From positions 1-56,728 of the forward strand of contig CAYLYQ010000008.1 of assembly GCA_964388105.1 (NCBI GenBank): a stretch of DNA of 56,728 nucleotides. The letters run 5' to 3'. Shown in pieces: positions 18,793 through 37,271 of this stretch (position 1 is the first letter of the stretch; the number at the start of each line of letters is the position of its first letter). Source of the stretch: an uncultured Acidimicrobiaceae bacterium. GTDB taxonomy: Bacteria > Actinomycetota > Acidimicrobiia > Spongiisociales > ZC4RG35. The notes under the pieces were generated by a model. The model was not told where the DNA came from and searched no databases. It saw only the letters and a list, made by a program, of their open reading frames with translations. Both the position numbers and the translations under genes were made by a program.

Positions 18793-18823
18793 CGAAGCGG
18801 GGCCTGTTTGGCCCTTGTCCCCT

Positions 18824-18913
18824 GGAGGGGTCGCATAGTCCGGTCTAGTGCGCGGCACTCGAAATGCCGTAGGGGGTTGCACCTCCTCGTGGGTTCGAAT
18901 CCCACCCCCTCCG
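18824..18913 (+). tRNA. tRNA-Ser (anticodon CGA)
   Basis: Acceptor GGAGGGG/CCCCTCC, anticodon loop ctCGAaa, long variable arm, T-arm GTGGGTTCGAATCCCAC. Confidence 0.9.
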
Positions 18914-18932
18914 CTCGACTCCTCGACATCGA

Positions 18933-19020
18933 GGAGGGGTGTCCGAGTGGTCTAAGGAGACGGTCTTGAAAACCGTTGGGCCCTTCACGGGTCTCCTGGG
19001 TTCGAATCCCAGCCCCTCCG
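18933..19020 (+). tRNA. tRNA-Ser (anticodon UGA)
   Basis: Acceptor GGAGGGG/CCCCTCC, anticodon loop ctTGAaa, long variable arm, T-arm CTGGGTTCGAATCCCAG. Confidence 0.9.
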
Positions 19021-19074
19021 CTCCCGGCCAATAGCGTCTCCTCGCCTCGCCTCCCGGATGTACCGTGACCCGCG

Positions 19075-20142: not shown

Positions 20143-20198
20143 TCGTCGTCGAGAGCCGTACGCTGTACCTGTCACGGGTCGCCTGATCCCGAGACGCT

Positions 20199-20292
<94 letters not shown>

Positions 20293-23184: not shown

Positions 23185-24605
23185 GAGCTCTCCTCGATGG
23201 GGGCCGCGGGCAGGTTGAGGGTGAATCTCGTCCTTCCCGGCCGGGATTCGAGATCGATGGTCCCGCCGTGGCCCTCGACGATCGCGCGGACGATGGACAG
23301 GCCGAGGCCCGCCCCGGACGTCGTGCGGCGTGAACCCGACCCCCGATAGAACCTCTCGAACAAGTGCTCTGTGACCTCCTCCGGCACGCCCGGACCGTCG
23401 TCCTCCACCCAGATTCGCACGCGCGACCCGTCCAAGGTGCCGCCCATGGTCACCGAGACGTCGTCGCCCCCATGCTCGACAGAGTTGCGGACGAGGTTGG
23501 TGACGGCCTGCGTGAGTCGCTGGGGGTCGCCGACGAACACCCCGGGATCGGCCACGACGACCCGCACTTCGCGCCCGATGAGACCGGTGACCTTGACCTT
23601 CATATCGCCCATGAAGTCGGCGAGGTCGATCGGGTGGGCCTCCACGAACTCCGGGGTGTCCGATCGGGCCAGGATGAGCAAGTCGTCGACGATCCGCGAC
23701 ATGCGGTCGAGCTCGCTGTTGACGATCTCCATTGCATGCTTCCGCTCCTCGGGGTCGTCTCCCGCCAGCTCCAGCTGCCCGCGGATCACGGTGATGGGCG
23801 TGCGGAGCTCGTGCCCGGCGTCATCCACGAAGCGGCGCTGAGTGGCGAACGACTCCTCGAGACGATCGAGCATCTCGTTGAAGGTGCTGGCGAGGCGGCC
23901 GATCTCGTTGTCGCTGTCCACCGGGATGCGCTGGCTGAGGTCGGTCTCGCTGATGTTCAACGCAGCGTCGGTGACGAGGCGCACGGGCCGGAGCACGTCG
24001 CCTGCCGCGATCCAGGCGACGACCGAGGCAAGCACGAAGATCGACCCCAGGACGATCGCTGCGGCTCGAACCATCGAGTTTGCCGCGGCCTGGCGATCCG
24101 CGAGGTAGAAGCCGGCAACGAAGACCCCGCCCGGGTTTCCCGCTTGGTCGAGCAGGGGAACCGCCACGTAACGAAGTGGCCCGTTCTCGGTGTCGACCTG
24201 GTCTCGTATGGGCGCGTCGACTGCGGTCCAGACATCGATCATGTCCGCCGGGATCGGCATGTTGCGCGGACCGGCACGGTGGGGAGCGCCGTCGATGAAA
24301 GTGACCATGATCTCCCCGGCGAGGGGGACGTTGCGGTCGAAATAGACGTCCAGGATGGCCTCGATATCACCGGCGAACGCCTCCCCCGTCTCCGGGTTGA
24401 TCCCGCCCGCGAGGGAGCGGAGCTCCTCGGTCTCCTGATCGAGGAGCGCGTCGGCGTCGCTCACCACCTGGCCGAGGAGGTAGGTCCGCTGGATGAGAAG
24501 CGCCGCGACCAGTGCGAACGCGAGGAGGATCAGGTACCAGCCGAGGATGCGCCAGCGTGCGGAACGGGCGCGGCGTCTGGGCTCGGTGGCGGGTTCGATG
24601 ATCAT
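23169..24605 (-). CDS. sensor histidine kinase (2 TM, periplasmic loop, HAMP, HisKA, HATPase)
   Basis: H-box DAGHELRTPIT, N-box NLVRNSVEH, G-boxes DDGPGV and GAGLGLSIV. 16-nt overlap with the regulator gene. Confidence 0.9.
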   Translation of the reverse strand: MIIEPATEPRRRARSARWRILGWYLILLAFALVAALLIQRTYLLGQVVSDADALLDQETEELRSLAGGINPETGEAFAGDIEAILDVYFDRNVPLAGEIMVTFIDGAPHRAGPRNMPIPADMIDVWTAVDAPIRDQVDTENGPLRYVAVPLLDQAGNPGGVFVAGFYLADRQAAANSMVRAAAIVLGSIFVLASVVAWIAAGDVLRPVRLVTDAALNISETDLSQRIPVDSDNEIGRLASTFNEMLDRLEESFATQRRFVDDAGHELRTPITVIRGQLELAGDDPEERKHAMEIVNSELDRMSRIVDDLLILARSDTPEFVEAHPIDLADFMGDMKVKVTGLIGREVRVVVADPGVFVGDPQRLTQAVTNLVRNSVEHGGDDVSVTMGGTLDGSRVRIWVEDDGPGVPEEVTEHLFERFYRGSGSRRTTSGAGLGLSIVRAIVEGHGGTIDLESRPGRTRFTLNLPAAPIEESSWPES

Positions 24606-24618
24606 GGAGCGTAGAAAG

Positions 24619-24642
24619 GAGGGCCGCCCTAGAGCGGCCCTC
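24619..24642 (-). terminator. candidate intrinsic terminator after the heptose operon
   Basis: A 9-bp GC stem GAGGGCCGC/GCGGCCCTC with a 6-nt loop lies 32 nt after the stop at 24674. On the minus strand it is followed by CTTTCTAC, a weak U-tract. Confidence 0.45.
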
Positions 24643-24673
24643 GAGGCCGAAGCGTCCAGTTCAGGGAGATGAT

Positions 24674-25969
24674 CTATGAAGCCCTGACCGGTGGGCAGAC
24701 CCGGGTCTGCTCCTGCCAGAGGCGATCGACCAACCGCCCCTCTGGAAGCTCGACGTCATCGAAGGTCAACAGCGAGTCCTTGCTTACGGCCCGTGTGAGG
24801 CGGGCCCCCTCCGCGAGTCCCATGGGAAGCAGACCCTCCTCGGCGACCTGGCTGGCGTTGGCGCACTGACCGTAGGTCATGTAGAAGCCGATCCCGTCGA
24901 TCACCTCGCCGGCCTCGAGGTCCTTCTTGGCGGTCGCCACGACATCGACCACATGTCCCACGTCCGGAGTCACCGTGGGGTCATGGTGGTCGACTGCCCG
25001 CGCGATCGATCTCGGTGCCTCCAGGTGGCACAGGTGATAAGGGGTGTAGAAGAGATAGAGCGGGCCGTCTCCGAGCTTGTACAGCTCCAGCCATCTCCGT
25101 TGGAAGGGCTCGTCGGTGGTGCCCAGGCAGAAGACCCCGGGTGCGGGTTCGGCACCCACCAGGTAATCGACCAAACCCACTTCCAAGAGCTCGTCGACGT
25201 CGTAGAGCGACGCGGCCTCGGACACATGGTTCGCCTCGTACCCGTAGAGGCCGACCCTGCCGGCCCTCAATCCGGTGGCGTTGGCAACCAATGACATCTC
25301 GAAGCTCATCTTGGTCCCGTCGGCAAAGCTCGCCGCCATGTTCGGGGTGAGGCCTTTTCGAGTCGCAAAGTCGATTTGGGTCGTGTAGTTCCGATACGGG
25401 TCGTGGAGCCCCTTCAGGTTGCCGAGCAGGACGGGTCGCACCCCCAGCGACGAGGTGAAGTGGTACAAGTTCATCATCACTCCGGGTTGGTCCCCCTCGG
25501 AGTCGGTCAGGATGACGCCGGCATCGTCGGCGTAGCGCTTGAGGATGGGGCCGACGGTTCCCTGCATCTCGGCGTTCATCGTCACCAGGTGCTTGCTCTC
25601 CTCGATGGCCCGCATCGCGATATGGCAGCCGAACTCCACCGCGCCTGTGACTTCCCAGACGACGTCGATGCCTGCGGCTCCGCATGCCATCTCGGCGTCG
25701 GCCGTCACTGCGGGCTGGCCATCCTGGATGGCGGCGTCCAACTGCTCGAGGTCGGTGACGAGGCGAGGGTTGTCCACTCCTGCTTCGGCATAGACGCTGA
25801 CGGCGTTCTCGGCGGTGCGATTGGCTATCACCGAGATCTCCATTCCGGGTACGTGCCTGGTGACCTGATAGGCGAGCGCACGGCCCATGGCACCCGCACC
25901 CACGAGGAGGATCTTTATGGGGTCGCCTTCCTCCTCCCGGCGTCGCAGGGCGCGATCGACGAGTGTCAT
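24674..25969 (-). CDS. NAD(P)-binding oxidoreductase with C-terminal SAF domain (homoserine-dehydrogenase-like, COG4091 type)
   Basis: Rossmann motif ILLVGAGAMGRA. C-terminal SAF-like segment DLEAGEVIDGIGFYMTYG. ATG 25969 overlaps the upstream stop (ATGA). Confidence 0.7.
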   Translation of the reverse strand: MTLVDRALRRREEEGDPIKILLVGAGAMGRALAYQVTRHVPGMEISVIANRTAENAVSVYAEAGVDNPRLVTDLEQLDAAIQDGQPAVTADAEMACGAAGIDVVWEVTGAVEFGCHIAMRAIEESKHLVTMNAEMQGTVGPILKRYADDAGVILTDSEGDQPGVMMNLYHFTSSLGVRPVLLGNLKGLHDPYRNYTTQIDFATRKGLTPNMAASFADGTKMSFEMSLVANATGLRAGRVGLYGYEANHVSEAASLYDVDELLEVGLVDYLVGAEPAPGVFCLGTTDEPFQRRWLELYKLGDGPLYLFYTPYHLCHLEAPRSIARAVDHHDPTVTPDVGHVVDVVATAKKDLEAGEVIDGIGFYMTYGQCANASQVAEEGLLPMGLAEGARLTRAVSKDSLLTFDDVELPEGRLVDRLWQEQTRVCPPVRAS

Positions 25970-26532
25970 CAACGCACCCCCGGCCCGAGGGGGACGGCCA
26001 TTGCGTCGGTGAAGGGAGCCCACGACCTGTCCTTCTCACTCACGACTGTCACCTCAAAGGGCCAGTCGATCTCGAACGCGGGATCGTCATAGCGAAACCC
26101 TCTGCCATGCTCGGGCGAGTAGGGCGCGGTCACCTGATAGGTGAGCTCGGTGTCGTCTTCGAGCGCCTGAAAGCCCTGGGCGAACCCCTCCGGGACGAAG
26201 AGCATTCGGTAATCCCCGGCGCGAAGGGTGGTGCTGTACGCCTGGCGGTAGGTCGGGGATCCCTGCCTGATGTCGATGATGGTGTCGAAGATGGCGCCCC
26301 TGGTGACGCGAAAGAGCTTCGACTCGGCCATCGGGGGAACTTGCCAATGCATGCCCCGCAGCGACCCGGCCCGGCGGCTGAGGATGATGTTGATCTGTGA
26401 GACCGAGCCCGGGAGCGACCTCTCGTTGAATTGCGACGCATCCCAGACCCGTGCGTTGAAGCCCCTCTCGTCCTCGACGGGCTCGATCTGGATCTCGAAC
26501 GCACCCCCGAGTGGCAGCGGTATGAACTCCAC
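25969..26532 (-). CDS. RmlC-like cupin sugar-nucleotide 3,5-epimerase
   Basis: GTG 26532 lies 5 nt after the hddA stop. RmlC-like motifs DERGFN, LRGMHWQ, GAIFDTIIDIR, FVPEGFAQGF. Confidence 0.8.
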   Translation of the reverse strand: MEFIPLPLGGAFEIQIEPVEDERGFNARVWDASQFNERSLPGSVSQINIILSRRAGSLRGMHWQVPPMAESKLFRVTRGAIFDTIIDIRQGSPTYRQAYSTTLRAGDYRMLFVPEGFAQGFQALEDDTELTYQVTAPYSPEHGRGFRYDDPAFEIDWPFEVTVVSEKDRSWAPFTDAMAVPLGPGVR

Positions 26533-26537
26533 TGAGA

Positions 26538-27557
26538 TCAGATGTTGAAGGGAATCGCAACCTGCGACCCGTTGGACTCGTAAGCGACTGGCATCTCTAT
26601 CAACGGGGACAGAGCGTTGCGGACAGCCCGGCGCGCCTTCCGGGGGACGATGAGCATCAAGAATCCGCCGCCGCCCGCCCCGCACAGCTTGCCTCCCAGC
26701 GCCCCTGCGTTGATCGCGGCCTCGTACCAGGCGTCGATCTGCGAGTTGCTGATCCGGCTGGCCAACTTGCGCTTCAACGTCCATCCCTCGTCGAGGATCG
26801 CAGCCAGCTTTTCGACGTCGAACTCGCTGGTCTCCATCAGCCGGCCCAGGTCGTGTGCCTGGTCACGCATCCTGACGAGGATGTCCATCCGATCCTCGAC
26901 GTTCTGCTGTTGCTCCTCGAGGACACCGGACGCGTCCCGTTGGTGGCCTGTCCAGAACATCATCATCGAGTCGAAGAGGCTGTCGAGGTTGTGATTCACA
27001 TGTGATTTGTGCTCGACGGACACGATGCCCTGTGAGTTGAAGGTGAACAGGTTGAGACCGCCGAACGCAGCCGCATACTGGTCCTGCTTGCCGATCGGCT
27101 CGGACAGGATGTCGATCTCGACATGGCTCGCCTCCTCGGCGAGCTGGCCAGGGGACACGCGCTGCCCCTTGAGCATGTGCAGCGCGTTGAGGAGCCCCAC
27201 ACAGAAGGCGCTCGAGCCCCCCAGGCCGGTCGAGGCGGGCACGTCGCCGACCGTCGAGATGAAGATCGGCGGCTCGATGTCGAGGAGTCGGAGGCACTCC
27301 CGAGCGATGTTGTTCTCGATCTCATCGATCGTGTTCACCTCCTCGCTGCGCGAGTAGTTGATCCGGATCGGCTCGAAGAAGAGCTCGGAGTGCGGCTTCA
27401 CCTGGACGTAGACGTACCGGTTGATGGTGGTGGACACGACAGCGCCGGGGTGCTGGCTGAAGAAGGCCGGTAGGTCTGTGCCGCCTCCGGCGAAACTGAC
27501 TCGCAGAGGTGTGCGCGAGATGATGGTTCCCGGCCCCCCGAGACTTGCCTTAGCCAT
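26538..27557 (-). CDS. hddA: GHMP-family D-glycero-alpha-D-manno-heptose 7-phosphate kinase
   Basis: N-terminus RTPLRVSFAGGGTDLP. GHMP motif PASTGLGGSSAF. C-terminal KLCGAGGGGFL. Confidence 0.8.
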   Translation of the reverse strand: MAKASLGGPGTIISRTPLRVSFAGGGTDLPAFFSQHPGAVVSTTINRYVYVQVKPHSELFFEPIRINYSRSEEVNTIDEIENNIARECLRLLDIEPPIFISTVGDVPASTGLGGSSAFCVGLLNALHMLKGQRVSPGQLAEEASHVEIDILSEPIGKQDQYAAAFGGLNLFTFNSQGIVSVEHKSHVNHNLDSLFDSMMMFWTGHQRDASGVLEEQQQNVEDRMDILVRMRDQAHDLGRLMETSEFDVEKLAAILDEGWTLKRKLASRISNSQIDAWYEAAINAGALGGKLCGAGGGGFLMLIVPRKARRAVRNALSPLIEMPVAYESNGSQVAIPFNI

Positions 27558-27999
27558 GCTTCAGGCTCCAGTCGTACGGGATGTCGTTGTCGATCGGGTC
27601 GATGCGGTCCATCTCGTCGGGATCGTGCGGGATGGTGGCGGCATTGGCGAGGATCACCATCTTGTCGCCGTAGGCCTTGTAGCCATTGGCGATGCCAGGT
27701 GGGATCTGCACCAGCACGTAGTTGTCTTCGCCCATGAACACCTCTTGAAGGACACCCTTGGTCGGCGAGTCCTCTCTGAGGTCGTACATGACGAGCTTGG
27801 CCCGACCGCTGATGACAGCGTTGTTGACGAACATCGTCTTGTGTATGTGCCATGCCTTGACCGCACCGGGCCAGGCGCAGGAGAAGTAGATCTCTCCGAA
27901 GCCCAAGAAATGCTCATCGGTCGCCTTGAGCATGTGCATGATCTTCCCGCGCTCGTCGACGATCTGTCGAAGCGGCACGACCTTCACCCCATCGATCAT
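27550..27999 (-). CDS. small RmlC/WxcM-like cupin (putative sugar-nucleotide epimerase/isomerase)
   Basis: Start taken as ATG 27999 (GAGGGGGGA plus 7 nt); GTG 28020 is an alternative. Cupin pattern DERGKIMHML...VKAWHIHK...IPPGIANGY. Confidence 0.7.
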   Translation of the reverse strand: MIDGVKVVPLRQIVDERGKIMHMLKATDEHFLGFGEIYFSCAWPGAVKAWHIHKTMFVNNAVISGRAKLVMYDLREDSPTKGVLQEVFMGEDNYVLVQIPPGIANGYKAYGDKMVILANAATIPHDPDEMDRIDPIDNDIPYDWSLKHG

Positions 28000-28022
28000 T
28001 TCGATGTCCCCCCTCGCCACCC

Positions 28023-29054
28023 CTACCGCCAGCGAAGCTTATCGTCGAGTGCCCCTGATGCCAATAGGTGATTGAGCCATCTGAGGCGGACGAACTTCTT
28101 GCCTTCCATCTCGCTCCCGGCGAGTGCGATGGCCTTGAAGTCCGCGGCGAGCTGCTTGGCGCCCTCGGTTGGGCTCCACTTCCAGTGAAAATCGGGGAAG
28201 GTCCTTGCGAACTTGGAGAAGTCGGCCCGATACGTGCGCTGATCCGCGCTGGCTTCCGATCGGACCTCTACCTCAGCCCCCTCGACGACTCCGGCGGCGA
28301 TGTGGGCCAGGTCGATCACGCGGAGGTTGAACTCGTCGGCCCCGTTGTTGAAGGCCTCGTTGCTGATCAATTCGATCGGGGCTTCGAGCACGTGGTGGAA
28401 GCTCCTGGCCACGTCCTCCACGTGGACAACCGGGCGCCACGGGCTCCCGTCGCTGAGCACCACGACCTTGCCGGTGGTGACGGCCTGGGCGACGAGGTTG
28501 TTCAAGACCGTGTCGAGCCGCATCCGGGGTGACAGCCCGTAGACGGTCCCATTCCTGAGGTAGGTGGGATGGAACGAGGAATCGGCGAGAGCCCGCAACG
28601 CCTCTTCTCCGGTGACCTTGGAGCGGGCATATGCCGTCTCGGGCGCGAGCGGCGCAGTCTCATCGACGGTCTCGAGCGAGCTCATCCCGTACATGATGCA
28701 AGAGGACGAGAAGAGGAACCTCCGCACGGAGGCCGCCTTCGCCATACTGGCCAGCCTGACGGTCGCCTTGTGATTGATGTCCTCGGTCCAGTCCTCGTCG
28801 AGGTTGCCGATCGGGTCATTGGAGAGGGCGGCAAGATGGATGACCGCGTAGAGGTCGGAGAGGTCGCTCCTCTCGACGTCGCGAATGTCCTTGGCCAACT
28901 CCTCGACGGCCAGGTCATCCTCCACCGCAGTGCATTCGTTGAAGTACCCGGTGTCGAGACCCACGATCTGGTATCCCTGGCCGGCGAGGTAGGGCGTCAT
29001 CACCGAGCCGATGTAGCCGCGGTGACCGGTGATGAGCACGGGTCTTGCACTCAT
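28023..29054 (-). CDS. extended-SDR NAD-dependent epimerase/reductase (GalE-like, not a 4,6-dehydratase)
   Basis: Glycine motif ITGHRGYIGS. Catalytic SSSCIMYG and YARSK. No acidic residue at the dehydratase Glu position. Confidence 0.75.
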   Translation of the reverse strand: MSARPVLITGHRGYIGSVMTPYLAGQGYQIVGLDTGYFNECTAVEDDLAVEELAKDIRDVERSDLSDLYAVIHLAALSNDPIGNLDEDWTEDINHKATVRLASMAKAASVRRFLFSSSCIMYGMSSLETVDETAPLAPETAYARSKVTGEEALRALADSSFHPTYLRNGTVYGLSPRMRLDTVLNNLVAQAVTTGKVVVLSDGSPWRPVVHVEDVARSFHHVLEAPIELISNEAFNNGADEFNLRVIDLAHIAAGVVEGAEVEVRSEASADQRTYRADFSKFARTFPDFHWKWSPTEGAKQLAADFKAIALAGSEMEGKKFVRLRWLNHLLASGALDDKLRWR

Positions 29055-30269
29055 CTAAAGCGCCTCGTCCTTGAGCTCGCCATCGAGGAGGAGCTCGACG
29101 GCGTCTATGAGCGGAAACTGCTCGGTCACCAGCGCCCCGCGGCCGTCGATCGCGCGGGCGGCCTCGAGGTCCCTGGTGTCGTCCCCGATGAAGAAGGTGC
29201 GGGTGAGATCGAGGTCGAAATCCCTCTGAGCCTCCGCCAGGAGCCCTGGTCGGGGCTTGCGACAGAAGCATCCTTCATCCCAGTCATGGCGGCAGGCGTA
29301 GAAACCGTCGATCCTCCCGCCCGCCTGGGCTGCGGTGTACATCATGTAACCGGTTACCTCGTCGAGGTCGAGATCGGTCATTTTACCCCTCGCCACCCCG
29401 GCCTGATTCGAGACCACGATCGTGCGCCATCCCGCTCGGTTCAGTCGCTCCAGGGCCTCGAGCGACCCCGGGATCCATCGAAAATCCCTGGCGCTGGTCA
29501 CATACTCGGCCCGGGGAGGCCGCTCGTTGAGCACCCCGTCACGGTCGAGGATCACCGTGGGCACCCTGGCGAAGAACCGATGGGTCAGGGGCAGCCGCCG
29601 CAAGTTCCCGACGCTGTAGTAGCGATGCTCGGACCAATAGGCGGCGAGCTCGCGATCTTCGGCAAGAGGTTGGTACACGGCCACTTCGAACAGGTCTTCG
29701 GGTCGCTCCTCGAGTAGAGGCATCGCGGTGGCTTTGTCGATGATGGCGTAGGAGATCTCGACCCCGCTCAGGCCCTCCGTCTGCCGGGCACGATCGAAGA
29801 CGGTCACCAGGTCGTCCTCCACCTTCACCGACGACGTCGTGTACCCGTCGCGATTCGCATACACGACGACCTGGCAAGGCTTGCCAAGAGTGAGGTACTG
29901 GTCCCACATCCGTTCGAAGGACATCGGCCAGTAGTTGTCGCAATAGAGGAGGAGGAACTTGTCATCGAGGAGGTCGGCGGCATCGATGACGCGGTGCGCG
30001 GTGAGCGCCTCCGCCGGCGTCACCCGGTATGTGATGGAGGCCCCGAACCTCGAACCGTCGCCCAACTCAGAGATGAAGGCGTCAGGCTGCCATCCCAGCA
30101 GGAGCAGCACTTCGGTGAATCCCTGATCCACGAGCATCTCGATCACATAGGCGATGAAGGTCCGGTCGTGAAAGGGGATCAGGGCCTTGGGCACGTCATC
30201 GCTCAAGGGGCGAAGGCGCGTGCCCATGCCACCGGCCAGGATGACGGCCTGGGTTGGTCTCGAACTCAC
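29055..30269 (-). CDS. bifunctional heptose-1-phosphate nucleotidyltransferase (HddC-like) / heptose 1,7-bisphosphate phosphatase (GmhB-like)
   Basis: GTG 30269 overlaps the gmhA stop (GTGA). N-terminal ILAGGMGTRLRPLS. C-terminal HAD motifs DRDGVLN, SNQ, GDD, and the GmhB zinc motif CRH...CFCRKP. Confidence 0.8.
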   Translation of the reverse strand: MSSRPTQAVILAGGMGTRLRPLSDDVPKALIPFHDRTFIAYVIEMLVDQGFTEVLLLLGWQPDAFISELGDGSRFGASITYRVTPAEALTAHRVIDAADLLDDKFLLLYCDNYWPMSFERMWDQYLTLGKPCQVVVYANRDGYTTSSVKVEDDLVTVFDRARQTEGLSGVEISYAIIDKATAMPLLEERPEDLFEVAVYQPLAEDRELAAYWSEHRYYSVGNLRRLPLTHRFFARVPTVILDRDGVLNERPPRAEYVTSARDFRWIPGSLEALERLNRAGWRTIVVSNQAGVARGKMTDLDLDEVTGYMMYTAAQAGGRIDGFYACRHDWDEGCFCRKPRPGLLAEAQRDFDLDLTRTFFIGDDTRDLEAARAIDGRGALVTEQFPLIDAVELLLDGELKDEAL

Positions 30270-30862
30270 GTGGTGGATCGGTCCTCGATCAAGCAGGTGG
30301 TGATGATGTCGGTCAGGACCGAATGAGCGCTCTCGACAGGGCCGTAGAGCCCCGACGGGCTCTCCACGAAGACCTTGATGTCGACCTGTTCCTTGAGGGC
30401 GCCTCCGTCGAAGCCGAGGAGTGCGAGTGTGGTGACGCCGTTGGCCGTCGCCCATTTGGCGGCATTGACCAGGTTCGGGCTCGAACCGCTACAGGAGATG
30501 AGCACGAGGAGGTCTCCGGGCTCGGCGAGGTTCTCCAACTGGCCACTGAACACCCTTTCGTACCCCTCGTCATTGGCGAGGGCGGTCAGCCAGGAGACGT
30601 TGTCGGAGAGGCAGACGACCTTCAGTGGCGGCGTCCCGTTGGTCTTGGTGGCCTTGCCGAGGTCGTTCACGAAATGCGTGGCGGTGGCGGCAGAACCGCC
30701 GTTCCCGGCGACGAAGATGCGCCTACCCTCGTCGCGGGCGGTGCGGAGCGCATTCGTCGCGGAGAGGATCTCGTCGACCGCGACACCGTCGAGAAGCTCG
30801 CGCAGCGTCGTCAAATAGCGATGTGTGACGTCAGCGACGTCTGCAATAGATACGGTAGACAC
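30266..30862 (-). CDS. gmhA: SIS-domain sedoheptulose-7-phosphate isomerase
   Basis: GmhA signature FVAGNGGSAATATHF plus LISCSGSSPN. Confidence 0.85.
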   Translation of the reverse strand: MSTVSIADVADVTHRYLTTLRELLDGVAVDEILSATNALRTARDEGRRIFVAGNGGSAATATHFVNDLGKATKTNGTPPLKVVCLSDNVSWLTALANDEGYERVFSGQLENLAEPGDLLVLISCSGSSPNLVNAAKWATANGVTTLALLGFDGGALKEQVDIKVFVESPSGLYGPVESAHSVLTDIITTCLIEDRSTT

Positions 30863-31077
30863 CCGTCACCCCCGACTCCCCACTATCCGTCTGAGGCGAG
30901 ATGCTACCACGGGCCTCCTCTTCGTCGACAAGGGGAGGATCGACGCTCGCCGCTCTTCGCCCCGAATGACCGTGCCTAAGGTACCGCTGTTGTGAAATCG
31001 GATCGGACCCCCCGTAGCACCTCGCTCGATCCGACTCCCAGCCGTCCGGCAGCGCACCTCGCACTGCGAGGAGACAC
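30863..31077. promoter_or_regulatory. divergent promoter region between gmhA operon and GMC oxidoreductase
   Basis: A 215-bp non-coding gap between divergent starts. Hairpin CCTCGC-ACT-GCGAGG (31057-31071) overlaps the GAGGAG Shine-Dalgarno of the GMC gene. Confidence 0.35.
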
Positions 31078-32676
31078 GTGCTGACGGACGCCCGTTCCCT
31101 CCAGGCCGGGGCCGTTGTCGAGTCCGAGATTTGCGTCGTCGGTGCCGGGCCGGCCGGAATCGCGCTGAGCAACGAGCTCGATGCCGCAGGCAAGACGGTC
31201 ACACTCGTGGAGGCCGGCGGGCTGGGGCGTCGCGACTCCCCAAGAGAGCTGGCGGTAGGTGAGAGCGTCGGCGAGAGCTACTTCCCGTTGCACAAGACCT
31301 TCGTGCACGGCTTCGGCGGCACCTCGAATCACTGGTTCGAAGGGGAGGGTTTCCGCACCCGACCCCTCGACCCGATCGACTTCCAACGACGTGCTGCGGT
31401 TCCTCACTCGGGATGGCCGTTCGGCCACGAAGAACTCGAGCCGTACTACGCCCGCGCCCAGCGATTCCTCGGCGTCGGGGAACATCCTTACGAGGTCTCA
31501 GGCTGGGAGGAGCTTGACGGGGCAATGCTGGACCTCGATCCCGCGATCCTCCAGTCCGTCGCGTTCTTGGTGATCCCGGGCACCGGGGTGGCGCACTACC
31601 TGGCCCAGGTCGAAGCTTCCCAGAGCTTGCGCCTGGTCTACAACGCCCACGCCGCGAGGCTGGACACGACCGATGGCGGCGATCGCGTCACCGAATTGGT
31701 GGCGCGGGTCCCCGGAGGGAGCGAGGTCAGGGTTCGCGCCGGGAAGTACGTCCTGGCATGTGGCGGGTTCGGGAACGCGAAGCTGCTCCTGTTGAGCACG
31801 GGACATGACCCTGCCGGCCTCGGCAATGGGTCGGACGTCGTAGGGCGCTACTTCATGGAGCACATCGGGCTGAGGGGCGGCAGGGTCGAGCCCACTTCGG
31901 CCAGTCCCCTGAAGAACCCCACGAGCCCCTATTTCGCGGTTCACGGGCAGCCCCTTTCCGTGCACACACTGCTCAGCCTCGCCCCCGAGGTCCTGGAGTC
32001 GGAAGGGCTTCTCAACGGGACGTTCTTCTTCGAGAGGATGCCGATGAGCCGCACGACGCAGGCGGTGCGTTCGTTCGTCGTCCTGCGGCGGGCGATCAAT
32101 TGGCGTCCTCTGCCTCGCGACCTCGGTGCGCATTTCGTGAGAGCCCTCTCCGGGATCCCTTCGATTGTCAACACGGCGGTGTATGAGGCCACCGGGAGGG
32201 GGACAGCCGACGGCATTCAGATGATGGCGATGGCGGAGCAGGCACCCAATCCTGACTCCAGGGTCACCCTGAGCGACAAGGAGAACTCGCTCGGGATCCC
32301 CCGTGTGAGGCTGAATTGGCGGCCCACCAGCCAGGACATTTCGTCGATCCTCAGGAGCGAGGCCATCATCGCCGAAGCGTTGCGAGACGCCGGGATCGCG
32401 CGGGTGCATGACCCGCTGAGCTCCGAGGACGTGAAATGGCATATGTCGGGCCAGTGGCACCACCTGGGAACCACGAGGATGGGCCTGACCCCGGATGAGA
32501 GCGTCGTAGATCCCGACTCCAGGGTTCACGGGATCGACAATCTGTGGGTGACCGGGGGATCCGTGTTCCCCACGGGGGGTTATGCCAATCCGACGCTGAC
32601 CTTGATCGCATTGGCATTGCGCCTCGCCGACAGCCTCAACAGGGGCTCACCGGTGGCGGTCTCAGAAGGTCAGTAG
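31078..32676 (+). CDS. GMC-family FAD-dependent oxidoreductase
   Basis: FAD motif VVGAGPAGIALSNEL...LVEAG. C-terminal GMC region HHLGTTRMG and GGSVFPTGGYANPTLT. GTG start 6 nt after GAGGAG. Confidence 0.8.
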   Translation: MLTDARSLQAGAVVESEICVVGAGPAGIALSNELDAAGKTVTLVEAGGLGRRDSPRELAVGESVGESYFPLHKTFVHGFGGTSNHWFEGEGFRTRPLDPIDFQRRAAVPHSGWPFGHEELEPYYARAQRFLGVGEHPYEVSGWEELDGAMLDLDPAILQSVAFLVIPGTGVAHYLAQVEASQSLRLVYNAHAARLDTTDGGDRVTELVARVPGGSEVRVRAGKYVLACGGFGNAKLLLLSTGHDPAGLGNGSDVVGRYFMEHIGLRGGRVEPTSASPLKNPTSPYFAVHGQPLSVHTLLSLAPEVLESEGLLNGTFFFERMPMSRTTQAVRSFVVLRRAINWRPLPRDLGAHFVRALSGIPSIVNTAVYEATGRGTADGIQMMAMAEQAPNPDSRVTLSDKENSLGIPRVRLNWRPTSQDISSILRSEAIIAEALRDAGIARVHDPLSSEDVKWHMSGQWHHLGTTRMGLTPDESVVDPDSRVHGIDNLWVTGGSVFPTGGYANPTLTLIALALRLADSLNRGSPVAVSEGQ

Positions 32677-34944
32677 ACGGAGCACCGCCCGCACCGGAAG
32701 CCAACGCAGCGACCATCCTGCGTTCCGGACGTTCTCGTCCCCGAAGAGCCCCATCACCCGTTTGGCGCCGCGGCGGTCGAGCTCTCGAAGTCTCCGCCAA
32801 GCTCCCGCCAGGACGAACTGGTGGAAGAGCGCTGCTTTGCGCCGGCGCAACTCGGAGTCGGTCAGGAGACCGGTGCGCGAGGCGCGCTCGAATATCACTT
32901 CGAGTCGCGAGATCGTCTCGGCCCGAAACATGCCTTCGGTGAGGGCTCCGGAGTGGATCGTGTAATTGGCCGAGATCTGAGGCAGGCACAGCACGCCGTA
33001 ACTTGCGAATAGACGGACCCACATGTCCAGATCCGTGGGGTTCTTCAGGTCCGCGTCGAACTGGCCCACCGCCTCGTAGGCGGCTCGCCGGGCGACCAAT
33101 CCGGGGAAGCGGACCCAGGAGGAATCCGTGAGAACGCGGCGCAGAGCCTCGACAGGGTCGAGCCTGGTCGGCCGAAGGAATCGCTGTGTCTTCTTCGTCT
33201 TCCCCGACCCGTCGACCACCCTGACCCCGAAGAGCAGGACCATGTCGTCCGGATGAGTGTCGTAGATCCCCTGCAAGATCGGTAACGCGCCCTCGGCCAG
33301 GGAGTCGTCGTCGTGGAGGATCAGGAGCCAAGTCCCCCTTCCCAGCTCGAGGCAGAGGTTGAAATTCTCCTCGGCGGTGACAGCGGGGTCGTTGTGCACA
33401 TACCTCGTTGGACCGTTCCACCTGGCGAACAACTCGTCGAGTGTGGTCAGGGTCTTGGGTGAGGCGGAGTTGTCGCTGACCACCAGCTCCACTGTCCCGT
33501 CGGGGGGATGGGGTGCGTCGATGACGGAACGCAGGCAGGCCTCGAGGAAGTCAGGCCGCTCGTATGTGGGGATGCAGATGCTCAGGAGGGGTGTCCCTGG
33601 AGGCGCGTCGACTGTGCCGGAGGAATGGCGAACCGGCTCCGGTGGGCGGTCGAGCTCATTGCGTTCACTTGGGCCCGCTTCCTTCGACCCATCCCTGAAG
33701 AGGCGGCGCGCGGAGAGCCCCAACGAGACGCTCCTCGCCAGCCAGCCGGCTCCCCAAGCGATTGGCAATGTGAACGCCTGCCAAACCGGGGCGAAGGCGC
33801 CGGTGAGGATCTCCATGCCGGCACCGGTCGCCTCACTGGCAGCGATGTGCCTCTGTCGCTGGCCACCGAGCAGCTCAGATCTCCAGGGCAGGGCCGTGTT
33901 GTAGAGGATGGTCCCGATGATGGCGATCGCCACCAGCCCGTTGACTGCATAGGCGTTGGGCAGCAGTTCCACCAGCGGGTTGAGCGACCAATTGAATCCG
34001 ACGAGGGGGAGGTAGAGAAGCCCGCCGATCAAGCTGATGATCCAGAATTGCTTCCTCGCCACCCGAGCCTTCTGATGGTCTACCGTCATCCCGGCTTCGA
34101 TCGAGCGAGGACCGATCACCGCGATCAAGCCCAGACCCAGGATCGCGACGGGTCGGGCCACGACTCGCGCTCCCTCCGCGTACCCGAGGATCTCGGCCCC
34201 CACCAAGGCGTTGGCAATCACAGCGACGAGGAAGTCGGCACCAACGAAGCTCAGGTTGGCGACGAGCAGCCAGCGGCCCATCGTCGTGAGCTCCAACCAG
34301 GCGGGGGCCTCCAGGGTCTCACCCGAGCGTCGTCGCAATGGAAACGTCAGAAGCAGGGCAGATACCGAAGACATGAACAGTCCGATGGCCAGCGATCCGA
34401 ATGGGACCCATGCCGGAGTGGCCGTCCTGTGGAGGATGAAGACCCCTATCACGGTGCCGATGACAGCGACTGTCGAGGTGATCGCGGCGCTCCACGACGA
34501 GTTGCTGATGTGGAACATCTTCCGCCAGTGCTCCTGGAGCGGGGCGAGCACCGTTATGGCGGCGCCGGTCAGCGTCAAGGCCCAGATGTCCTCGCTCGGG
34601 ACGTCTCTGACCAGTGCGGCCGAAGCGAGGATGCCCACCGCTCCAAGTATCGAGATCAGCAGGCCTCGCCTGACGCTCGAGTCGAGGATCTGGATCCGGG
34701 AAGGCTCGGGTCGGGCCACAGCCAGGACCTCAGAGGGAGTGAAGACCAGCTCGGAGGGAATGGACCGGGCAAAGTTCCAGGCGGTGAATACGACCACGTA
34801 GGCGCCGAGCAGGGTGGCGTCGAACACTCTCACCGCATACAGGCCAATGATCAGGGTGGCGATCGCCGACAGGGCGGTGTCGATCTGACCCGCCGAGACG
34901 GTCTTGATCGTCTGTGGTCTCATGCCGCCGCGGCGCGCCTGCAC
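32662..34944 (-). CDS. fusion protein: Wzx/MOP-type polysaccharide flippase-like N-terminal domain + family 2 glycosyltransferase C-terminal domain
   Basis: About 440 aa with 12-14 predicted TM helices. Then a linker, then GT2 motifs SICIPTYERPDFLEACLRSV, VSDN and ILHDDD. The start is GTG 34944 or ATG 34923. Confidence 0.7.
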   Translation of the reverse strand: MQARRGGMRPQTIKTVSAGQIDTALSAIATLIIGLYAVRVFDATLLGAYVVVFTAWNFARSIPSELVFTPSEVLAVARPEPSRIQILDSSVRRGLLISILGAVGILASAALVRDVPSEDIWALTLTGAAITVLAPLQEHWRKMFHISNSSWSAAITSTVAVIGTVIGVFILHRTATPAWVPFGSLAIGLFMSSVSALLLTFPLRRRSGETLEAPAWLELTTMGRWLLVANLSFVGADFLVAVIANALVGAEILGYAEGARVVARPVAILGLGLIAVIGPRSIEAGMTVDHQKARVARKQFWIISLIGGLLYLPLVGFNWSLNPLVELLPNAYAVNGLVAIAIIGTILYNTALPWRSELLGGQRQRHIAASEATGAGMEILTGAFAPVWQAFTLPIAWGAGWLARSVSLGLSARRLFRDGSKEAGPSERNELDRPPEPVRHSSGTVDAPPGTPLLSICIPTYERPDFLEACLRSVIDAPHPPDGTVELVVSDNSASPKTLTTLDELFARWNGPTRYVHNDPAVTAEENFNLCLELGRGTWLLILHDDDSLAEGALPILQGIYDTHPDDMVLLFGVRVVDGSGKTKKTQRFLRPTRLDPVEALRRVLTDSSWVRFPGLVARRAAYEAVGQFDADLKNPTDLDMWVRLFASYGVLCLPQISANYTIHSGALTEGMFRAETISRLEVIFERASRTGLLTDSELRRRKAALFHQFVLAGAWRRLRELDRRGAKRVMGLFGDENVRNAGWSLRWLPVRAVLRLLTF

Positions 34945-35153
34945 TTTCCTGCTGGTCGTGACTGACTACCCGCCCGCACCGATTCCGTTCTCTCCTCCAT
35001 GTTTCGCATCGCAGTTAACCCGATGGAAGTCAATACGTCGCATGATCGACGGTGGGGGCACACCCGGTGGGATCTAGCGGACCCGGATTGGCTGCATGCG
35101 ACCCAGGTCAGGTGTCACTGATGCCGGGGATCCGGAGCTGCTGCGCCTTGGTT

Positions 35154-35516
35154 TCAGGGGGTGTCGACGCTGGCACTCTGCGGGCTCTCCGGGGTCGTGG
35201 GCGACTCCGGAGTCGTGGGCGACTCGGGGGTGTCCGGCGTGTTCGGCGTCACCGCACTTGCGGTTGCCGTTCTGAGCGAGTCGAACGGCGAGTCGTGAGT
35301 TGGGTCCAGGGGCCCGAACGAGACTCCTGGGATGCCGGGGGCGGTGGTCGTGGTCACCTGCGTGATCTCGGTGCGATCGCTGAGGTTGATGGAATCGGGA
35401 TTCGATCCGTTACTGCCTGGCTGGGCTATCGCCAGTCCGGTGATCCCGATGGCGGAGACCGCGGTCACCGCCGTGACGACCTTCCAGTTCCTCTTGACTT
35501 GGTCCTTGAGCTGCAT
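35154..35516 (-). CDS. secreted/anchored acidic protein with TPESPT repeats (paralog 1)
   Basis: 120 aa. N-terminal hydrophobic signal WKVVTAVTAVSAIGITGLAIA. Conserved blocks DSINLSDRTEITQVTT and DSPFDSL. Repeat tail. Clear paralogy with the next gene. Confidence 0.7.
   Translation of the reverse strand: MQLKDQVKRNWKVVTAVTAVSAIGITGLAIAQPGSNGSNPDSINLSDRTEITQVTTTTAPGIPGVSFGPLDPTHDSPFDSLRTATASAVTPNTPDTPESPTTPESPTTPESPQSASVDTP
35178..35249 (-). repeat. in-frame 18-nt tandem repeats encoding TP(D/E)SPT units
   Basis: The unit gactccgg(a/g)gtcgtgggc recurs about 3-4 times and encodes TPNTPDTPESPTTPESPTTPESPQ. Confidence 0.8.
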
Positions 35517-35543
35517 CGTCCGCTCCTACTGGGCTCTCGTCGT

Positions 35544-35978
35544 TCAGGGAGAGTCGACGCTGGCGCTGTCCGGAGAGTCAACCGAATCCGGCGAGCTCGG
35601 CGAGTCGGGCGTGTTCGGTGAGTCCGGGGTGTTCGGGCTGTCCGGCGAGTCCGGGGTGTTAGGCGACTTGGGTGAGTCGGGGGTGTTCGGCGAGTTCGGG
35701 CTGACCGTGTTCACGCTGGCGGTCGCCGTGTTGAGCGAGTCGAACGGCGAGTCGTTCGTGGGATCGAGATCACCGAAGGTGACTCCGGGAATCTGCGGGG
35801 AGGTGGTGGCCGTGGTCACCTGTGTGATCTCGGTGCGGTCGTTCAGGTTGATCGAGTCCACATCCTTGGCGTCAGACCCAGGGGCTGCAGCCGCAAGGCC
35901 GCTGATACCGATGGCCGAAACTGCGGTGGCCGCTGCCACGACCTTCCAGTTCTTCGTGATTTGTTCCTTGAGTTGCAT
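35544..35978 (-). CDS. secreted/anchored acidic protein with NTPDSP repeats (paralog 2)
   Basis: 144 aa. Same N-terminus (MQLKEQITKNWKVV...) and the same conserved blocks as paralog 1. Longer repeat tail. Both end in SASVD(T/S)P. Confidence 0.7.
   Translation of the reverse strand: MQLKEQITKNWKVVAAATAVSAIGISGLAAAAPGSDAKDVDSINLNDRTEITQVTTATTSPQIPGVTFGDLDPTNDSPFDSLNTATASVNTVSPNSPNTPDSPKSPNTPDSPDSPNTPDSPNTPDSPSSPDSVDSPDSASVDSP
35571..35702 (-). repeat. in-frame degenerate 9/18-nt tandem repeats encoding (N/D/K/S)(T)PDSP units
   Basis: The unit gagtccggggtgttcgg and variants encode SPNSPNTPDSPKSPNTPDSPDSPNTPDSPNTPDSPSSPDSVDSP. Confidence 0.8.
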
Positions 35979-36035: not shown

Positions 36036-37271
36036 TCATTCTGAGAAGGGCATGAGAGTCTTCTCATCTACCCGACGTGCACTTTCGGCCCACAGCTCGG
36101 CAATGGCGACCCTCACCGCGACCTCTTCGGGCCAGTTCGGCGACTGCACTCGAAACGGCCCGGTCGAGAGCATGAAGGCCATCGCGGCTGCACGGCGTCG
36201 CAGGTCGACGGGGTCGACCACCGTGTCCCAGATGCGGAGCAATGTGTTGCCGTAAGCCTTGATCCGCTCGGGCTGGGGGCTCATCGGTCCCCAGACCGAG
36301 AGGTGGGCGAGCATCGTCGCCGGGTCGTCTCCGGCGCGCCCCAGGCCGTAGGTGTCGATGTCGATGATCCCGACGATGTTGCCGCCCTCGACCATGAGCT
36401 GCGATTCGTAGTAGTCGCCGTGAACCGGGCGGTCGGCGGGGAGGGTCTCGCTCCCGATCCCGCCGGACAACGCCTCCAAGCGACCGTCCAGCTCCGGACA
36501 GAGTGCCGACACCATCGGGATCATGTCCTGGGCTCGGTCGAGGGGGGAAGGCGTGGGCTCGAGGCCTTCGGGGTGGGGGAGGTCGGCCACCATCGCGGCC
36601 ACGGCTTCGGGATCCGGGACGGCGGCTTCGGGATTGGACATCGCCTGTCTCAGTGTCATTCCTGGCATCGCCTGGAGCACGACGAGACCGAGCCGGTCGT
36701 CGAAGCCCAGGCTGGCGGGCACGTTGAGCACCTGGGAGAGCGTTTGGTGCGTCCGGTGGAGCCGCTCGATCGCCCTGGGTCGGACCACCTTGAAGAACAC
36801 CCGCTCCTGGGAGCCGCGCACCTCGACCACTGCCCTTCGGCCGGGACGGTACGCCCGCAGGTGCGTGGTGGCCGGGCCCGGGGCCCCTCCCAAGCTGACG
36901 AGTACCTGCTCCGCCGATTCGGCGTTCATTGCAGACGGCAGTGCCGGGAGAGCCGGATCGTGGGGAAACCGCCAGATGCCGACCCGTCCGCCCTCGTCGT
37001 CCTCCACGAGCATCGCCCCTTCGGGGATCCGGCCTGCGGCCGCGATGAAGGCCTGTTGACCGTCCAACGGGCCCCCGGACACGCTGACCTCGTAGCGCAC
37101 CGTGATGCTGCGCCCGGGTGACCATGAGACCTGGTTGATGGTGGTCGAGGAGATCTCACCATCCAGGGCCGACACTGCCGCCTCGAGCGGGGGTGGGGGG
37201 GATGCACCCAGGAGTGTGGCCACCTCCGGGAGCCGGGGGTCGGTCAGCGCGGCCGTCCTCGGATGGGTCAA
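36036..37271 (-). CDS. aminoglycoside-phosphotransferase-fold (APH/choline-kinase-like) kinase
   Basis: Brenner-type motif VHGDYYESQLM and IIDIDT. A TTG start at 37271 lies 3 nt after the secDF stop, so the start is uncertain. Confidence 0.65.
   Translation of the reverse strand: MTHPRTAALTDPRLPEVATLLGASPPPPLEAAVSALDGEISSTTINQVSWSPGRSITVRYEVSVSGGPLDGQQAFIAAAGRIPEGAMLVEDDEGGRVGIWRFPHDPALPALPSAMNAESAEQVLVSLGGAPGPATTHLRAYRPGRRAVVEVRGSQERVFFKVVRPRAIERLHRTHQTLSQVLNVPASLGFDDRLGLVVLQAMPGMTLRQAMSNPEAAVPDPEAVAAMVADLPHPEGLEPTPSPLDRAQDMIPMVSALCPELDGRLEALSGGIGSETLPADRPVHGDYYESQLMVEGGNIVGIIDIDTYGLGRAGDDPATMLAHLSVWGPMSPQPERIKAYGNTLLRIWDTVVDPVDLRRRAAAMAFMLSTGPFRVQSPNWPEEVAVRVAIAELWAESARRVDEKTLMPFSE

Follow-up and report, generated by a model that had tools for sequence, protein, structure and literature searches.

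The window analysed here is a 56,728-bp contig with 67% GC (CAYLYQ010000008.1, assembly GCA_964388105.1) from an uncultured Acidimicrobiaceae bacterium; the nearest named relatives of its seryl-tRNA synthetase are Acidimicrobiia metagenome-assembled genomes (MAGs, 78–86% identity). Our subject is a glycan island of nine genes within it: a seven-gene operon for an activated heptose, a divergently oriented flavoprotein gene, and a gene encoding a flippase fused to a family 2 glycosyltransferase (GT2). The island lies beside genes for two small secreted proteins, an APH-family kinase-like protein, a histidine kinase and a response regulator (Table 1). A sequence-only reading of this DNA had grouped everything from 24674 (the stop of the last heptose-operon gene) to 35978 (the start of the first small-protein gene) into one heptose-based system for a surface glycan or for protein O-glycosylation, with four components: a complete activated-heptose pathway with a tailoring set, a sugar-type GMC oxidase, the flippase–GT2 fusion, and two secreted proteins with S/T-P-rich tails. 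All four are present there as open reading frames (ORFs).

Table 1 Features of the window discussed in the text (aa, amino acids; SDR, short-chain dehydrogenase/reductase; NDP, nucleoside diphosphate; AF2, AlphaFold 2; DMSO, dimethyl sulfoxide).
Feature	Position	Strand	Basis or remark
Response regulator	22510-23184	-	Pfam
Histidine kinase, one flank of the insertion site	23169-24605	-	Pfam
Inserted glycan island, ~10.5 kb	24576-35153		Breaks in homology to empty-site relatives, lower GC
DXR-II-like oxidoreductase, DLO type (DRL_cat + SAF), last operon gene	24674-25969	-	DRL_cat 9.4e-46
RmlC-like NDP-4-keto-sugar 3,5-epimerase	25969-26532	-	dTDP_sugar_isom 5.3e-53
HddA-type GHMP kinase	26538-27557	-	NCBIfam HddA 1.5e-42 (top match)
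Small cupin, RmlC/CapF C-terminal type	27550-28020	-	dTDP_sugar_isom 2.5e-12
SDR-type NDP-sugar oxidoreductase or epimerase	28023-29054	-	Pfam Epimerase 1.1e-43
Nucleotidyltransferase (HddC-like) fused to GmhB-type HAD-IIIA heptose-1,7-bisphosphate 7-phosphatase, 404 aa	29055-30269	-	Pfam, PRK08942
GmhA-like sedoheptulose-7-phosphate isomerase, SIS domain, first operon gene	30266-30862	-	Pfam SIS_2 7.5e-19
Cytoplasmic GMC flavoprotein, sugar-oxidising clade, divergent from operon	31078-32676	+	GMC_oxred_C 1.1e-25
Wzx-fold MOP flippase (residues 1 to ~430) + GT2 (~446-758), 760 aa	32662-34944	-	AF2/Foldseek, Pfam
Small secreted acidic S/T-P-tailed protein 2, 120 aa	35154-35516	-	Backbone gene, outside island
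Small secreted acidic S/T-P-tailed protein 1, 144 aa	35544-35978	-	Backbone gene, outside island
APH-family kinase-like protein, other flank of the insertion site	36036-37271	-	Pfam APH 7.2e-09
397-aa protein, ~ten hydrophobic segments	42258-43451	+	Overlaps start of amine-oxidase gene
Type II DMSO-reductase-family-like operon	49054-55808	-	1183-aa molybdopterin subunit, 4Fe-4S subunit, NarJ-like chaperone, EB_dh haem subunit

Island and insertion site

Homology between the window and two empty sites (comparison loci L010 and L093) ends at 24575 on the histidine-kinase side and at ~35199 on the other, the latter break falling within the tail of the second small protein. The island thus has the second small-protein gene on one side and the histidine kinase gene on the other, and the orthologous site is empty in the close relatives L010, L093 and L095. 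Its GC content is 64.0%, compared with 66.3–68.0% in all equal-sized windows elsewhere in the contig, and its mean GC at third codon positions (GC3) is 0.835 versus 0.869 elsewhere (Mann-Whitney p=0.002). Two marks of a genomic island, absence from relatives and deviating GC, are therefore found here. Signatures of mobility are not: we detected no direct or inverted repeats at the borders, no integrase or recombinase gene inside the island, and no tRNA target at its border (the nearest tRNA gene is 4.3 kb away). A scan for promoter and terminator consensus sequences gave counts no higher than in shuffled sequence. Since five lineages are without the insertion, gain in the lineage of the window (which is also present in two SRA assemblies, L091 and L092) is the parsimonious reading. 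SRR15237800 and SRR24881069 contain an identical island. All nine island ORFs are intact, with strong coding GC3. Our comparisons indicate that the island is a horizontally acquired segment in a conserved locus of APH-like, small-protein, histidine kinase and response regulator genes.

We compared this locus with eight other loci that carry small-protein genes (L005–L010, L093 and L095). The block of APH-like kinase, small protein(s), histidine kinase and response regulator is contiguous and free of glycan genes in L007, L008/L009, L010, L093 and L095, and the distant L005/L006 keep only the small-protein/APH-like pair, adjoining an ECF sigma factor. Identity between L010 and the window is 81% for the APH-like protein, 74% for the histidine kinase (a HAMP/HisKA protein with an extracytoplasmic loop of ~135 aa) and 87% for the response regulator; for L093 it is 79% for SecDF, 76% for the APH-like protein and 72% for the histidine kinase. 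The APH-like protein of L095 is 62% identical to that of the window, and synteny on this 505-kb contig extends from a thiolase gene through pknB, serS, DUF885, the response regulator and the histidine kinase to the APH-like gene and SecDF. In L010, L093 and L095 the histidine kinase gene directly follows the last small-protein gene, with a gap of ~140 bp in L010. Because the island splits a block that is contiguous in relatives, we regard the small proteins as backbone genes and not as members of the glycan system. Taken by itself, the set of APH-like kinase, one or two small S/T-P proteins, histidine kinase and response regulator forms a conserved module of unknown function.

The two small proteins are paralogues with an N-terminal signal-like hydrophobic helix that ends in an invariant AxA motif, and the alignment of their family runs from an MQxKxQ..NWKVV N-terminus through the AxA helix and a DSPFDS motif to an acidic tail rich in S, T, P and D. 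The enrichment of [ST]P sites in the tails is real: small protein 1 has 17 sites, 15 of them in its last 59 residues (5000 shuffles reach at most 13), and small protein 2 has 10, against a shuffle mean of 5.4 (sd 1.7). The tails of these proteins might be O-heptosylated, directly or via a lipid-linked heptose, and several features speak for it: the small-protein genes adjoin the island in the same orientation, the [ST]P-enriched tails follow N-termini that resemble signal peptides, and S-layer O-glycans that contain heptose have precedents in Gram-positive bacteria (PMC2943079). We nonetheless consider such a modification very unlikely. The S/T-P tails are equally present in small-protein relatives without the island, and the adjacency is specific to this lineage. 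The sequence-only reading had looked to co-localisation of the gene sets in other genomes; it was absent in every locus examined, as the eight other small-protein loci are without glycan genes and no small S/T-P proteins occur in ten loci syntenic with the heptose operon (L011–L020) or in seven fetched loci with a stand-alone homologue of the flippase (L001–L004 and L096–L098, five distinct lineages).

The machinery for such a modification is likewise missing from the contig. No oligosaccharyltransferase, O-antigen ligase or Wzy had been seen in the segment from 24674 to 35978, and this held when a Pfam scan was extended to the whole 56.7-kb contig (coding-like ORFs of ~200 aa or more and some shorter ones): the ORFs scanned include no Wzy_C-type O-oligosaccharyltransferase of the PglL/PilO/WsaB type, no PMT/GT-C enzyme and no heptosyltransferase. 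Oligosaccharyltransferase-dependent O-glycosylation would call for such an enzyme and for a conserved association with acceptor genes, and neither was found. Given the insertion and the same tails in island-free relatives, the positional link between small proteins and glycan genes is best seen as an accident of the insertion site. Of the original proposal, a heptose surface glycan is consistent with the genes; the link to the S/T-P proteins, and hence protein O-glycosylation, is not upheld. Within our model, confidence is greatest for the insertion and for the exclusion of the small proteins from the glycan system, followed by the heptose pathway.

The heptose operon and its tailoring enzymes

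Start and stop codons overlap or abut throughout the seven-gene minus-strand operon, as in translational coupling. The first gene product is GmhA-like (NCBIfam gmhA TIGR00441, 5.8e-28; 98 bits, below the 209-bit cut-off). The second gene, whose real start is the GTG at 30269 that overlaps the GmhA stop, joins a nucleotidyltransferase (NTP_transferase 8.5e-19, HddC model 3.1e-14) to a GmhB phosphatase (PRK08942 4.8e-44). The best solved relatives of the kinase are heptose kinases (3K85, 4.2e-41; WcbL 4USK, 1.7e-36; 4N3O, 8.9e-33), which marks it as a heptose-7-phosphate kinase of the GHMP family, like HddA and WcbL, in distinction to the ribokinase-type HldE of the ADP-heptose route. All four activation functions (GmhA, GHMP-type kinase, GmhB phosphatase and nucleotidyltransferase) are thus encoded. 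These matches support the complete activated-heptose pathway with a tailoring set that the sequence-only reading had proposed. The kinase is of the GHMP type, as in alpha-anomer, GDP-type routes, and the activated heptose is most likely GDP-linked. GDP-heptose pathways are known in Campylobacter jejuni capsules (PMC10680097) and in S-layer glycans (PMC2943079), and GDP-heptose genes are known in mycobacteria (PMC7705670).

The tailoring genes of the operon encode a small cupin, an RmlC-like protein, an SDR and a DXR-II-like oxidoreductase. The small cupin is closest to 3EJK (1.6e-28), with weak matches to the GDP-4-keto-heptose 3-epimerases 8DCL and 8DAK and to the cupin domain of Cap5F, and is a candidate C3 or C5 epimerase. 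The RmlC-like epimerase (start GTG at 26532) matches PDB RmlC entries at ~1e-34 and 6NDR at 2.4e-22. The SDR carries GxxGxxG and YxxxK motifs, and its best PDB match is 6VO6 (1.4e-23), which we take to be the C. jejuni GDP-heptose C4-dehydrogenase Cj1427; it is a candidate C4 dehydrogenase or an epimerase that works by transient oxidation. In C. jejuni, the pathway runs through GmhA, HddA, GmhB and HddC, followed by the C4-dehydrogenase Cj1427 or a 4,6-dehydratase, C3/C5 epimerases and C4 reductases (PMC10680097).

To place the operon among its relatives, we used the HddA-type kinase as query (one genome per species) and annotated 80 loci by tblastn; the best match of the kinase among GTDB representatives was 66% identical. 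The cassette order recurs in ten genomes from several phyla. An Actinomycetes MAG (L012) and an Acidimicrobiaceae MAG (L020) have all seven genes in order. Roseiarcus, Pleomorphomonas, Mesorhizobium sp. M1312 and Bradyrhizobium viridifuturi SEMIA 690 (L016–L019) have six, the small cupin being absent, and only the core of nucleotidyltransferase-GmhB, SDR, cupin and kinase is found in L011 and L013–L015 (Verrucomicrobiota, Gemmatimonadota). The GmhA-like gene is syntenic in L012 and L015–L020, a gene of the size of the nucleotidyltransferase-GmhB fusion is present in all ten loci, the SDR is 56–65% identical across them, and the small cupin is 77–81% identical in L011–L015 and L020. This patchy distribution across phyla at 45–81% identity argues that the cassette spread horizontally.

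Glycan genes surround these copies. Three GT4 genes, a gene for a Bac_transf priming enzyme, a DUF4012 gene and a GMC gene accompany the cassette in L012. Near the L019 copy are genes for a methyltransferase and Wzy_C, another GMC gene and one that is glycosyltransferase-like, and near the L015 copy are genes for a DAO flavoprotein, a GT2 and an ABC-2 transporter. By this gene content, the relatives of the heptose cassette lie inside ordinary polysaccharide loci, which bears on whether the operon might instead supply the sugar of a secondary metabolite like septacidin or hygromycin B, heptose-containing compounds of actinomycetes. The host is actinobacterial, and natural products derived from heptose exist (PMC9978623), but the neighbourhood contains a Wzx-fold flippase in place of typical genes for scaffold biosynthesis, resistance or regulation, and the cassette relatives point to polysaccharide. 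We find a role in secondary metabolism scarcely credible.

The last gene of the operon encodes a protein that shares full-length homology and the DRL_cat and SAF domains with the DXR-II/DLO family (PMC3847144), including Brucella DRL (DXR-II; 3UPL, 3.9e-63). The signature residues of DXR-II are Gly121, Thr229 and His250 in Brucella numbering (PMC3847144). Unlike DXR-II, the island protein has changes at two of these three positions (Met for Thr229 and Tyr for His250, with Gly121 retained), and its gene is translationally coupled to the RmlC-like gene within a sugar operon. These two differences place it with the DLO clades and not with the enzymes of the methylerythritol phosphate pathway. The DLO clades were described as functionally uncharacterised (PMC3847144), and our literature search found no later functional characterisation of DLO1 or DLO2. 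Across the loci compared, the DLO-type gene always adjoins an RmlC-like gene, and the two are both present or both absent (in relatives, L012 at ~11555 and L016–L020); the pair also occurs in a non-heptose NDP-sugar cassette (L001, DLO at 16029–17339). This context points to a possible first functional setting for DLO-clade enzymes, namely the reduction or reductoisomerisation of NDP-keto-sugars. Since the C. jejuni framework proceeds from 4-keto formation through C3/C5 epimerisation to C4 reduction (PMC10680097), the DLO-type enzyme would, by analogy, reduce the epimerised keto-heptose.

The best solved relatives of the GMC flavoprotein all oxidise sugars (FAD-glucose dehydrogenase 6A2U, 8.8e-28; fructose dehydrogenase 7W2J; LivQ 7DVE; glycoside 3-oxidase 7QF8; and pyranose oxidases), in keeping with its earlier description as a sugar-type oxidase. 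Its sequence shows no signal peptide. An orthologue with 41% identity occupies the same divergent position in L012, and of the ten syntenic loci, six have a flavoprotein gene beside the heptose cassette, as does the window: GMC proteins in L012 (4658–6322), L016 (~3950–5536) and L019 (3886–5547), with a weak match in L017, and DAO proteins in L015 (11080–12384) and L011 (~13827–14885). The flavoprotein may therefore be part of the sugar tailoring. It is conceivable, though we hold it only tentatively, that the cassette makes an undescribed heptose derivative by a non-Campylobacter route, with the DLO-type enzyme as NDP-keto-heptose reductase or reductoisomerase, the GMC protein as an oxidising enzyme, and the Wzx–glycosyltransferase fusion coupling the last transfer to flipping. 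If this were true, the DLO family would gain its first function; for the DXR-II-like family to which it belongs, no role is known beyond isoprenoid synthesis.

The flippase–glycosyltransferase fusion

The assignment of the 760-aa protein as a flippase–GT2 fusion was borne out by its predicted structure and by Pfam. The AF2 model of its N-terminal domain, built on twelve homologues (pLDDT 89.6, pTM 0.87), has 12 long helices in a MOP fold, and Foldseek returned MOP proteins only: best was the lipid III flippase WzxE (9G9N; TM-score 0.71 as TMq, 0.74 as TMt), followed by MurJ and MATE proteins. The fold search decided the question, because searches at the sequence level gave little or nothing: Pfam support for the Wzx-like family consists of weak matches by distant members only, and the family profile had no match among PDB sequences even at E=10.

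Stand-alone proteins of ~431 aa, 54–59% identical to the Wzx part, are encoded in extracellular polysaccharide (EPS) loci of Acidimicrobiia (L001 3279–12230, L003 1–8831, L096 575–9355; also L002 and L004). Their gene order is Wzy_C, two beta-helix (NosD) proteins, a WecG-type transferase, a BY-kinase-like protein, the Wzx-like protein, a GT2 and a variable NDP-sugar cassette. In L001–L004 this locus adjoins groES/groEL/tsaD, and its sugar cassette often has two C-methyltransferases. No other flippase candidate is visible in any of the seven stand-alone loci. The predicted Wzx fold, together with the occurrence of the family in Wzy_C-type loci without another flippase candidate, makes the assignment of the N-terminal domain as a Wzx-type flippase well supported.

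The GT2 domain (Pfam match to residues ~450–650, 1.6e-17) corresponds in position to the GT2 encoded just after the flippase in the EPS loci, with 23–25% identity to it over 100–140 residues. Its true relatives are stand-alone GT2 proteins of 315–370 aa with 40–50% identity. The gene for the closest of them (50%) directly follows a Bac_transf gene (L099 1059–2726), whose product is 62% identical to the priming transferase (14086–14808) of L012, the locus with the closest heptose-cassette copy. Through this similarity the GT2 family appears loosely linked to heptose-type loci. The nearest solved structures are PglI and TarP, enzymes whose acceptors are lipid-linked or polymeric; these, along with the closest homologue following a Bac_transf gene, point to action on a lipid-diphosphate-linked or polymeric acceptor in the cytoplasm. 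A cytoplasmic GT2 fits the N-in/C-in topology expected of a 12-helix Wzx, with which the distribution of charge in the loops is weakly consistent.

These features bear on an alternative modelled on the Gtr modules (GtrA, GtrB, GtrC) of O-antigen glucosylation, in which the GT2 would load heptose onto polyprenyl phosphate, the fused transporter would flip it, and a GT-C enzyme encoded elsewhere would decorate a polysaccharide or protein outside the membrane. The island resembles such modules as a small, mobile, serotype-modifying unit with a GT2 and a flippase that acts on a glycan made elsewhere. Its single glycosyltransferase domain is welded to the transporter, no priming or polymerising enzyme is nearby, and polyprenyl-phosphate sugars and GT-C enzymes are widely used in Actinobacteria. 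Unlike the small GtrA, however, the transporter has a 12-helix Wzx fold and homologues in Wzy-type loci; the GT2 matches PglI, TarP, WcaA and EpsE-type proteins and not ArnC, GtrB or DPM1; there is no GT-C gene in the contig; and the island brings its own seven-gene donor pathway. Because the nearest GT2 homologue follows a phosphoglycosyl-transferase gene, the acceptor is probably a polyprenyl-diphosphate sugar. A Gtr-like mode of action is unlikely on this evidence. The single-sugar lipid carrier that had been suggested earlier is possible, and for the same two reasons (the priming transferase gene before the GT2 homologue and the 12-helix Wzx-type transporter) it is less likely than a Wzx-type route.

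An in-frame tblastn match across the stop codon suggested that the fusion had arisen by stop-codon loss between a Wzx-like gene and the GT2 gene after it. We rejected this origin because the GT2 is not orthologous to the partner GT2s, and position alone is conserved. The fusion is not a frameshift or assembly artefact either, since the identical 760-aa ORF is present in three assemblies (the window and two independent SRA assemblies). No other Wzx-GT2 fusion is present in the 150 top matches drawn from 1.84 billion representative proteins. Other C-terminal partners do occur in the Wzx-like family: GT4 domains in P0159 (877 aa) and P0228 (852 aa) and, in P0235 (1010 aa) and P0213 (1086 aa), a GINT1_N/GH43-like domain in one and thymidylate-kinase-like plus APH-like domains in the other. 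Judging from these domain matches, fusion of a flippase to an enzyme recurs independently in the family, and our literature search found no description of Wzx–glycosyltransferase fusions.

Proposed role in polysaccharide assembly

The island is a mosaic of three modules with different nearest relatives: the Wzx-like domain, the GT2 domain, and the GMC gene with the heptose operon. The ten syntenic cassette loci contain no homologue of the Wzx-like domain, and the weak matches (24–26% identity) that three of them show map to the GT2 domain. We think that the island is probably an acquired cassette for a heptose-containing surface or extracellular polysaccharide, not a glycoprotein, and that it plugs into assembly genes elsewhere in the genome. 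Sedoheptulose-7-phosphate would be isomerised by GmhA, phosphorylated at the anomeric position by the HddA-type kinase, dephosphorylated at position 7 by the GmhB domain and activated by the fused nucleotidyltransferase, giving an NDP-heptose, most likely with GDP. The SDR would then oxidise this to a keto intermediate, the cupin and RmlC-like enzymes would epimerise it and the DXR-II-like enzyme would reduce it, with a further oxidation possibly added by the GMC flavoprotein. On the cytoplasmic face, the GT2 domain would transfer the sugar, presumably this heptose, to a polyprenyl-diphosphate-linked oligosaccharide, and the fused Wzx-fold domain would flip the lipid-linked product. Initiation, polymerisation and attachment would come from genes elsewhere; relatives carry a complete Wzy-type EPS locus near groEL, and this is the partner that suggests itself first. 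A Wzx flippase is selective for its own repeat unit, and such selectivity would explain why a transferase that alters this unit moves together with, and is here joined to, a flippase of its own.

Several observations weigh against this model. All NCBIfam matches of the operon proteins fall below the equivalog cut-offs, so we treat them as divergent family members. The nucleotidyltransferase domain scores comparably with MurU, AglF, RmlA and HddC models, which leaves nucleotide specificity a weak point, and there is one SDR only in the operon, which makes the reductase role of the DLO-type enzyme purely inferential. The N-terminal domain of the fusion (residues 1–435) has no significant Pfam match of its own. 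The Pfam scan of the 56.7-kb contig found no priming transferase, Wzy, chain-length regulator, LCP-type ligase or second glycosyltransferase. Of the elements of a Wzx/Wzy pathway, then, the flippase is present in the island, whereas Wzy, a chain-length regulator and a priming transferase, all present in the loci of relatives, are not. With priming, polymerising and ligating genes missing from the contig, the pathway cannot be closed from the available sequence, and the island must rely on genes elsewhere in the genome. Gene content, homology, fold, conserved synteny and the insertion are what our data show, whereas the sequence of tailoring steps, the choice of nucleotide, both substrates of the GT2 (donor and acceptor) and the polymer made are inferred; polymer type and transferase substrates are the least certain parts of the model.

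The same gaps raise the question of whether the island is an orphan or decaying fragment of a polysaccharide locus that no longer makes a glycan. Two points speak for such a remnant: several essential steps are missing from the contig, and the island is a mosaic of modules with differing relatives. Against this, the nine ORFs are intact with strong coding GC3 and translationally coupled codons, the 760-aa ORF is identical in three independent assemblies, and reliance on genes outside the locus is common among glycan loci (PMC2943079). Decay is accordingly a rather improbable explanation, and we retain a functional plug-in cassette as the preferred reading.

Outside the island, the 397-aa protein with ~ten hydrophobic segments (Table 1) has no Pfam match even at E=1 and was considered as a hidden Wzy. 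Because L093, which is without the island, has this protein at 76% identity, we assign its gene to the backbone, unconnected with the island, and rejected it as a candidate. The rest of the contig carries an actinobacterial-type pknB-pbpA-rodA-pstP-fhaA block, serS, SecDF, MscL and a Nar-like oxidoreductase. The serS gene is followed by a large signal recognition particle RNA and four tRNA-Ser genes (anticodons GGA, CGA, TGA and GCT; 14775–16022, 16704–16982 and 18702–20291), so that the seryl-tRNA synthetase gene and genes for serine isoacceptor tRNAs are clustered. The type II DMSO-reductase-family-like operon resembles an ethylbenzene-dehydrogenase or Nar-like complex.

Comparison with described systems shows which parts of the island are familiar. 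Like the GDP-heptose pathway of C. jejuni capsules (PMC10680097), the island encodes the same four activation functions with a GHMP-type kinase, clusters the genes in a glycan locus, and has an SDR with 6VO6 as best solved relative together with cupin/RmlC-type epimerases. Unlike that pathway, its nucleotidyltransferase and phosphatase are fused, it has one SDR and no recognisable SDR C4-reductase, it adds a DLO-type oxidoreductase and a GMC flavoprotein, and it belongs to an actinobacterial host of a monoderm lineage, with low sequence similarity. The EPS locus of Acidimicrobiia beside groEL (L001–L004, L096) is similar in its closely related Wzx-like protein, in the GT2 directly after the flippase, and in an adjoining NDP-sugar cassette that includes homologues of the SDR, RmlC-like and DLO genes. 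It differs from the island, in which flippase and GT2 are one polypeptide, the GT2 is non-orthologous (at most 25% identity over ~140 residues), Wzy_C, WecG, BY-kinase-like and beta-helix genes are lacking, and the chromosomal site is another one.

With the heptose-glycan locus of Aneurinibacillus thermoaerophilus (PMC2943079), the island shares NDP-heptose genes in a Gram-positive setting, GC below that of the genome and dependence on genes elsewhere. In the slg clusters, however, a Wzy_C-type O-oligosaccharyltransferase (WsaB/WsfB) is accompanied by several glycosyltransferases and, as a rule, an ABC transporter (PMC2943079), none of which is found in the island; moreover, no S-layer protein is among the candidate acceptors here, whose association with the island is not conserved. 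Neither Wzx-dependent assembly nor a glycan island of low GC is out of the ordinary. The nucleotidyltransferase-GmhB fusion, the DLO oxidoreductase and flavoprotein in the tailoring set, and the covalent Wzx-GT2 fusion are what is unusual here.

No new class of protein glycosylation is opened by these data. The DLO clades gain a testable context, that of NDP-keto-sugars and a paired RmlC-like epimerase, and the heptose cassette also occurs in rhizobia that are in culture and open to experiment (Mesorhizobium sp. M1312 and Bradyrhizobium viridifuturi SEMIA 690). If our model is true, the island would be an example of how surface-glycan diversity spreads in uncultured Acidimicrobiia, with donor operon, glycosyltransferase and flippase travelling as one island that plugs into the resident assembly machinery.

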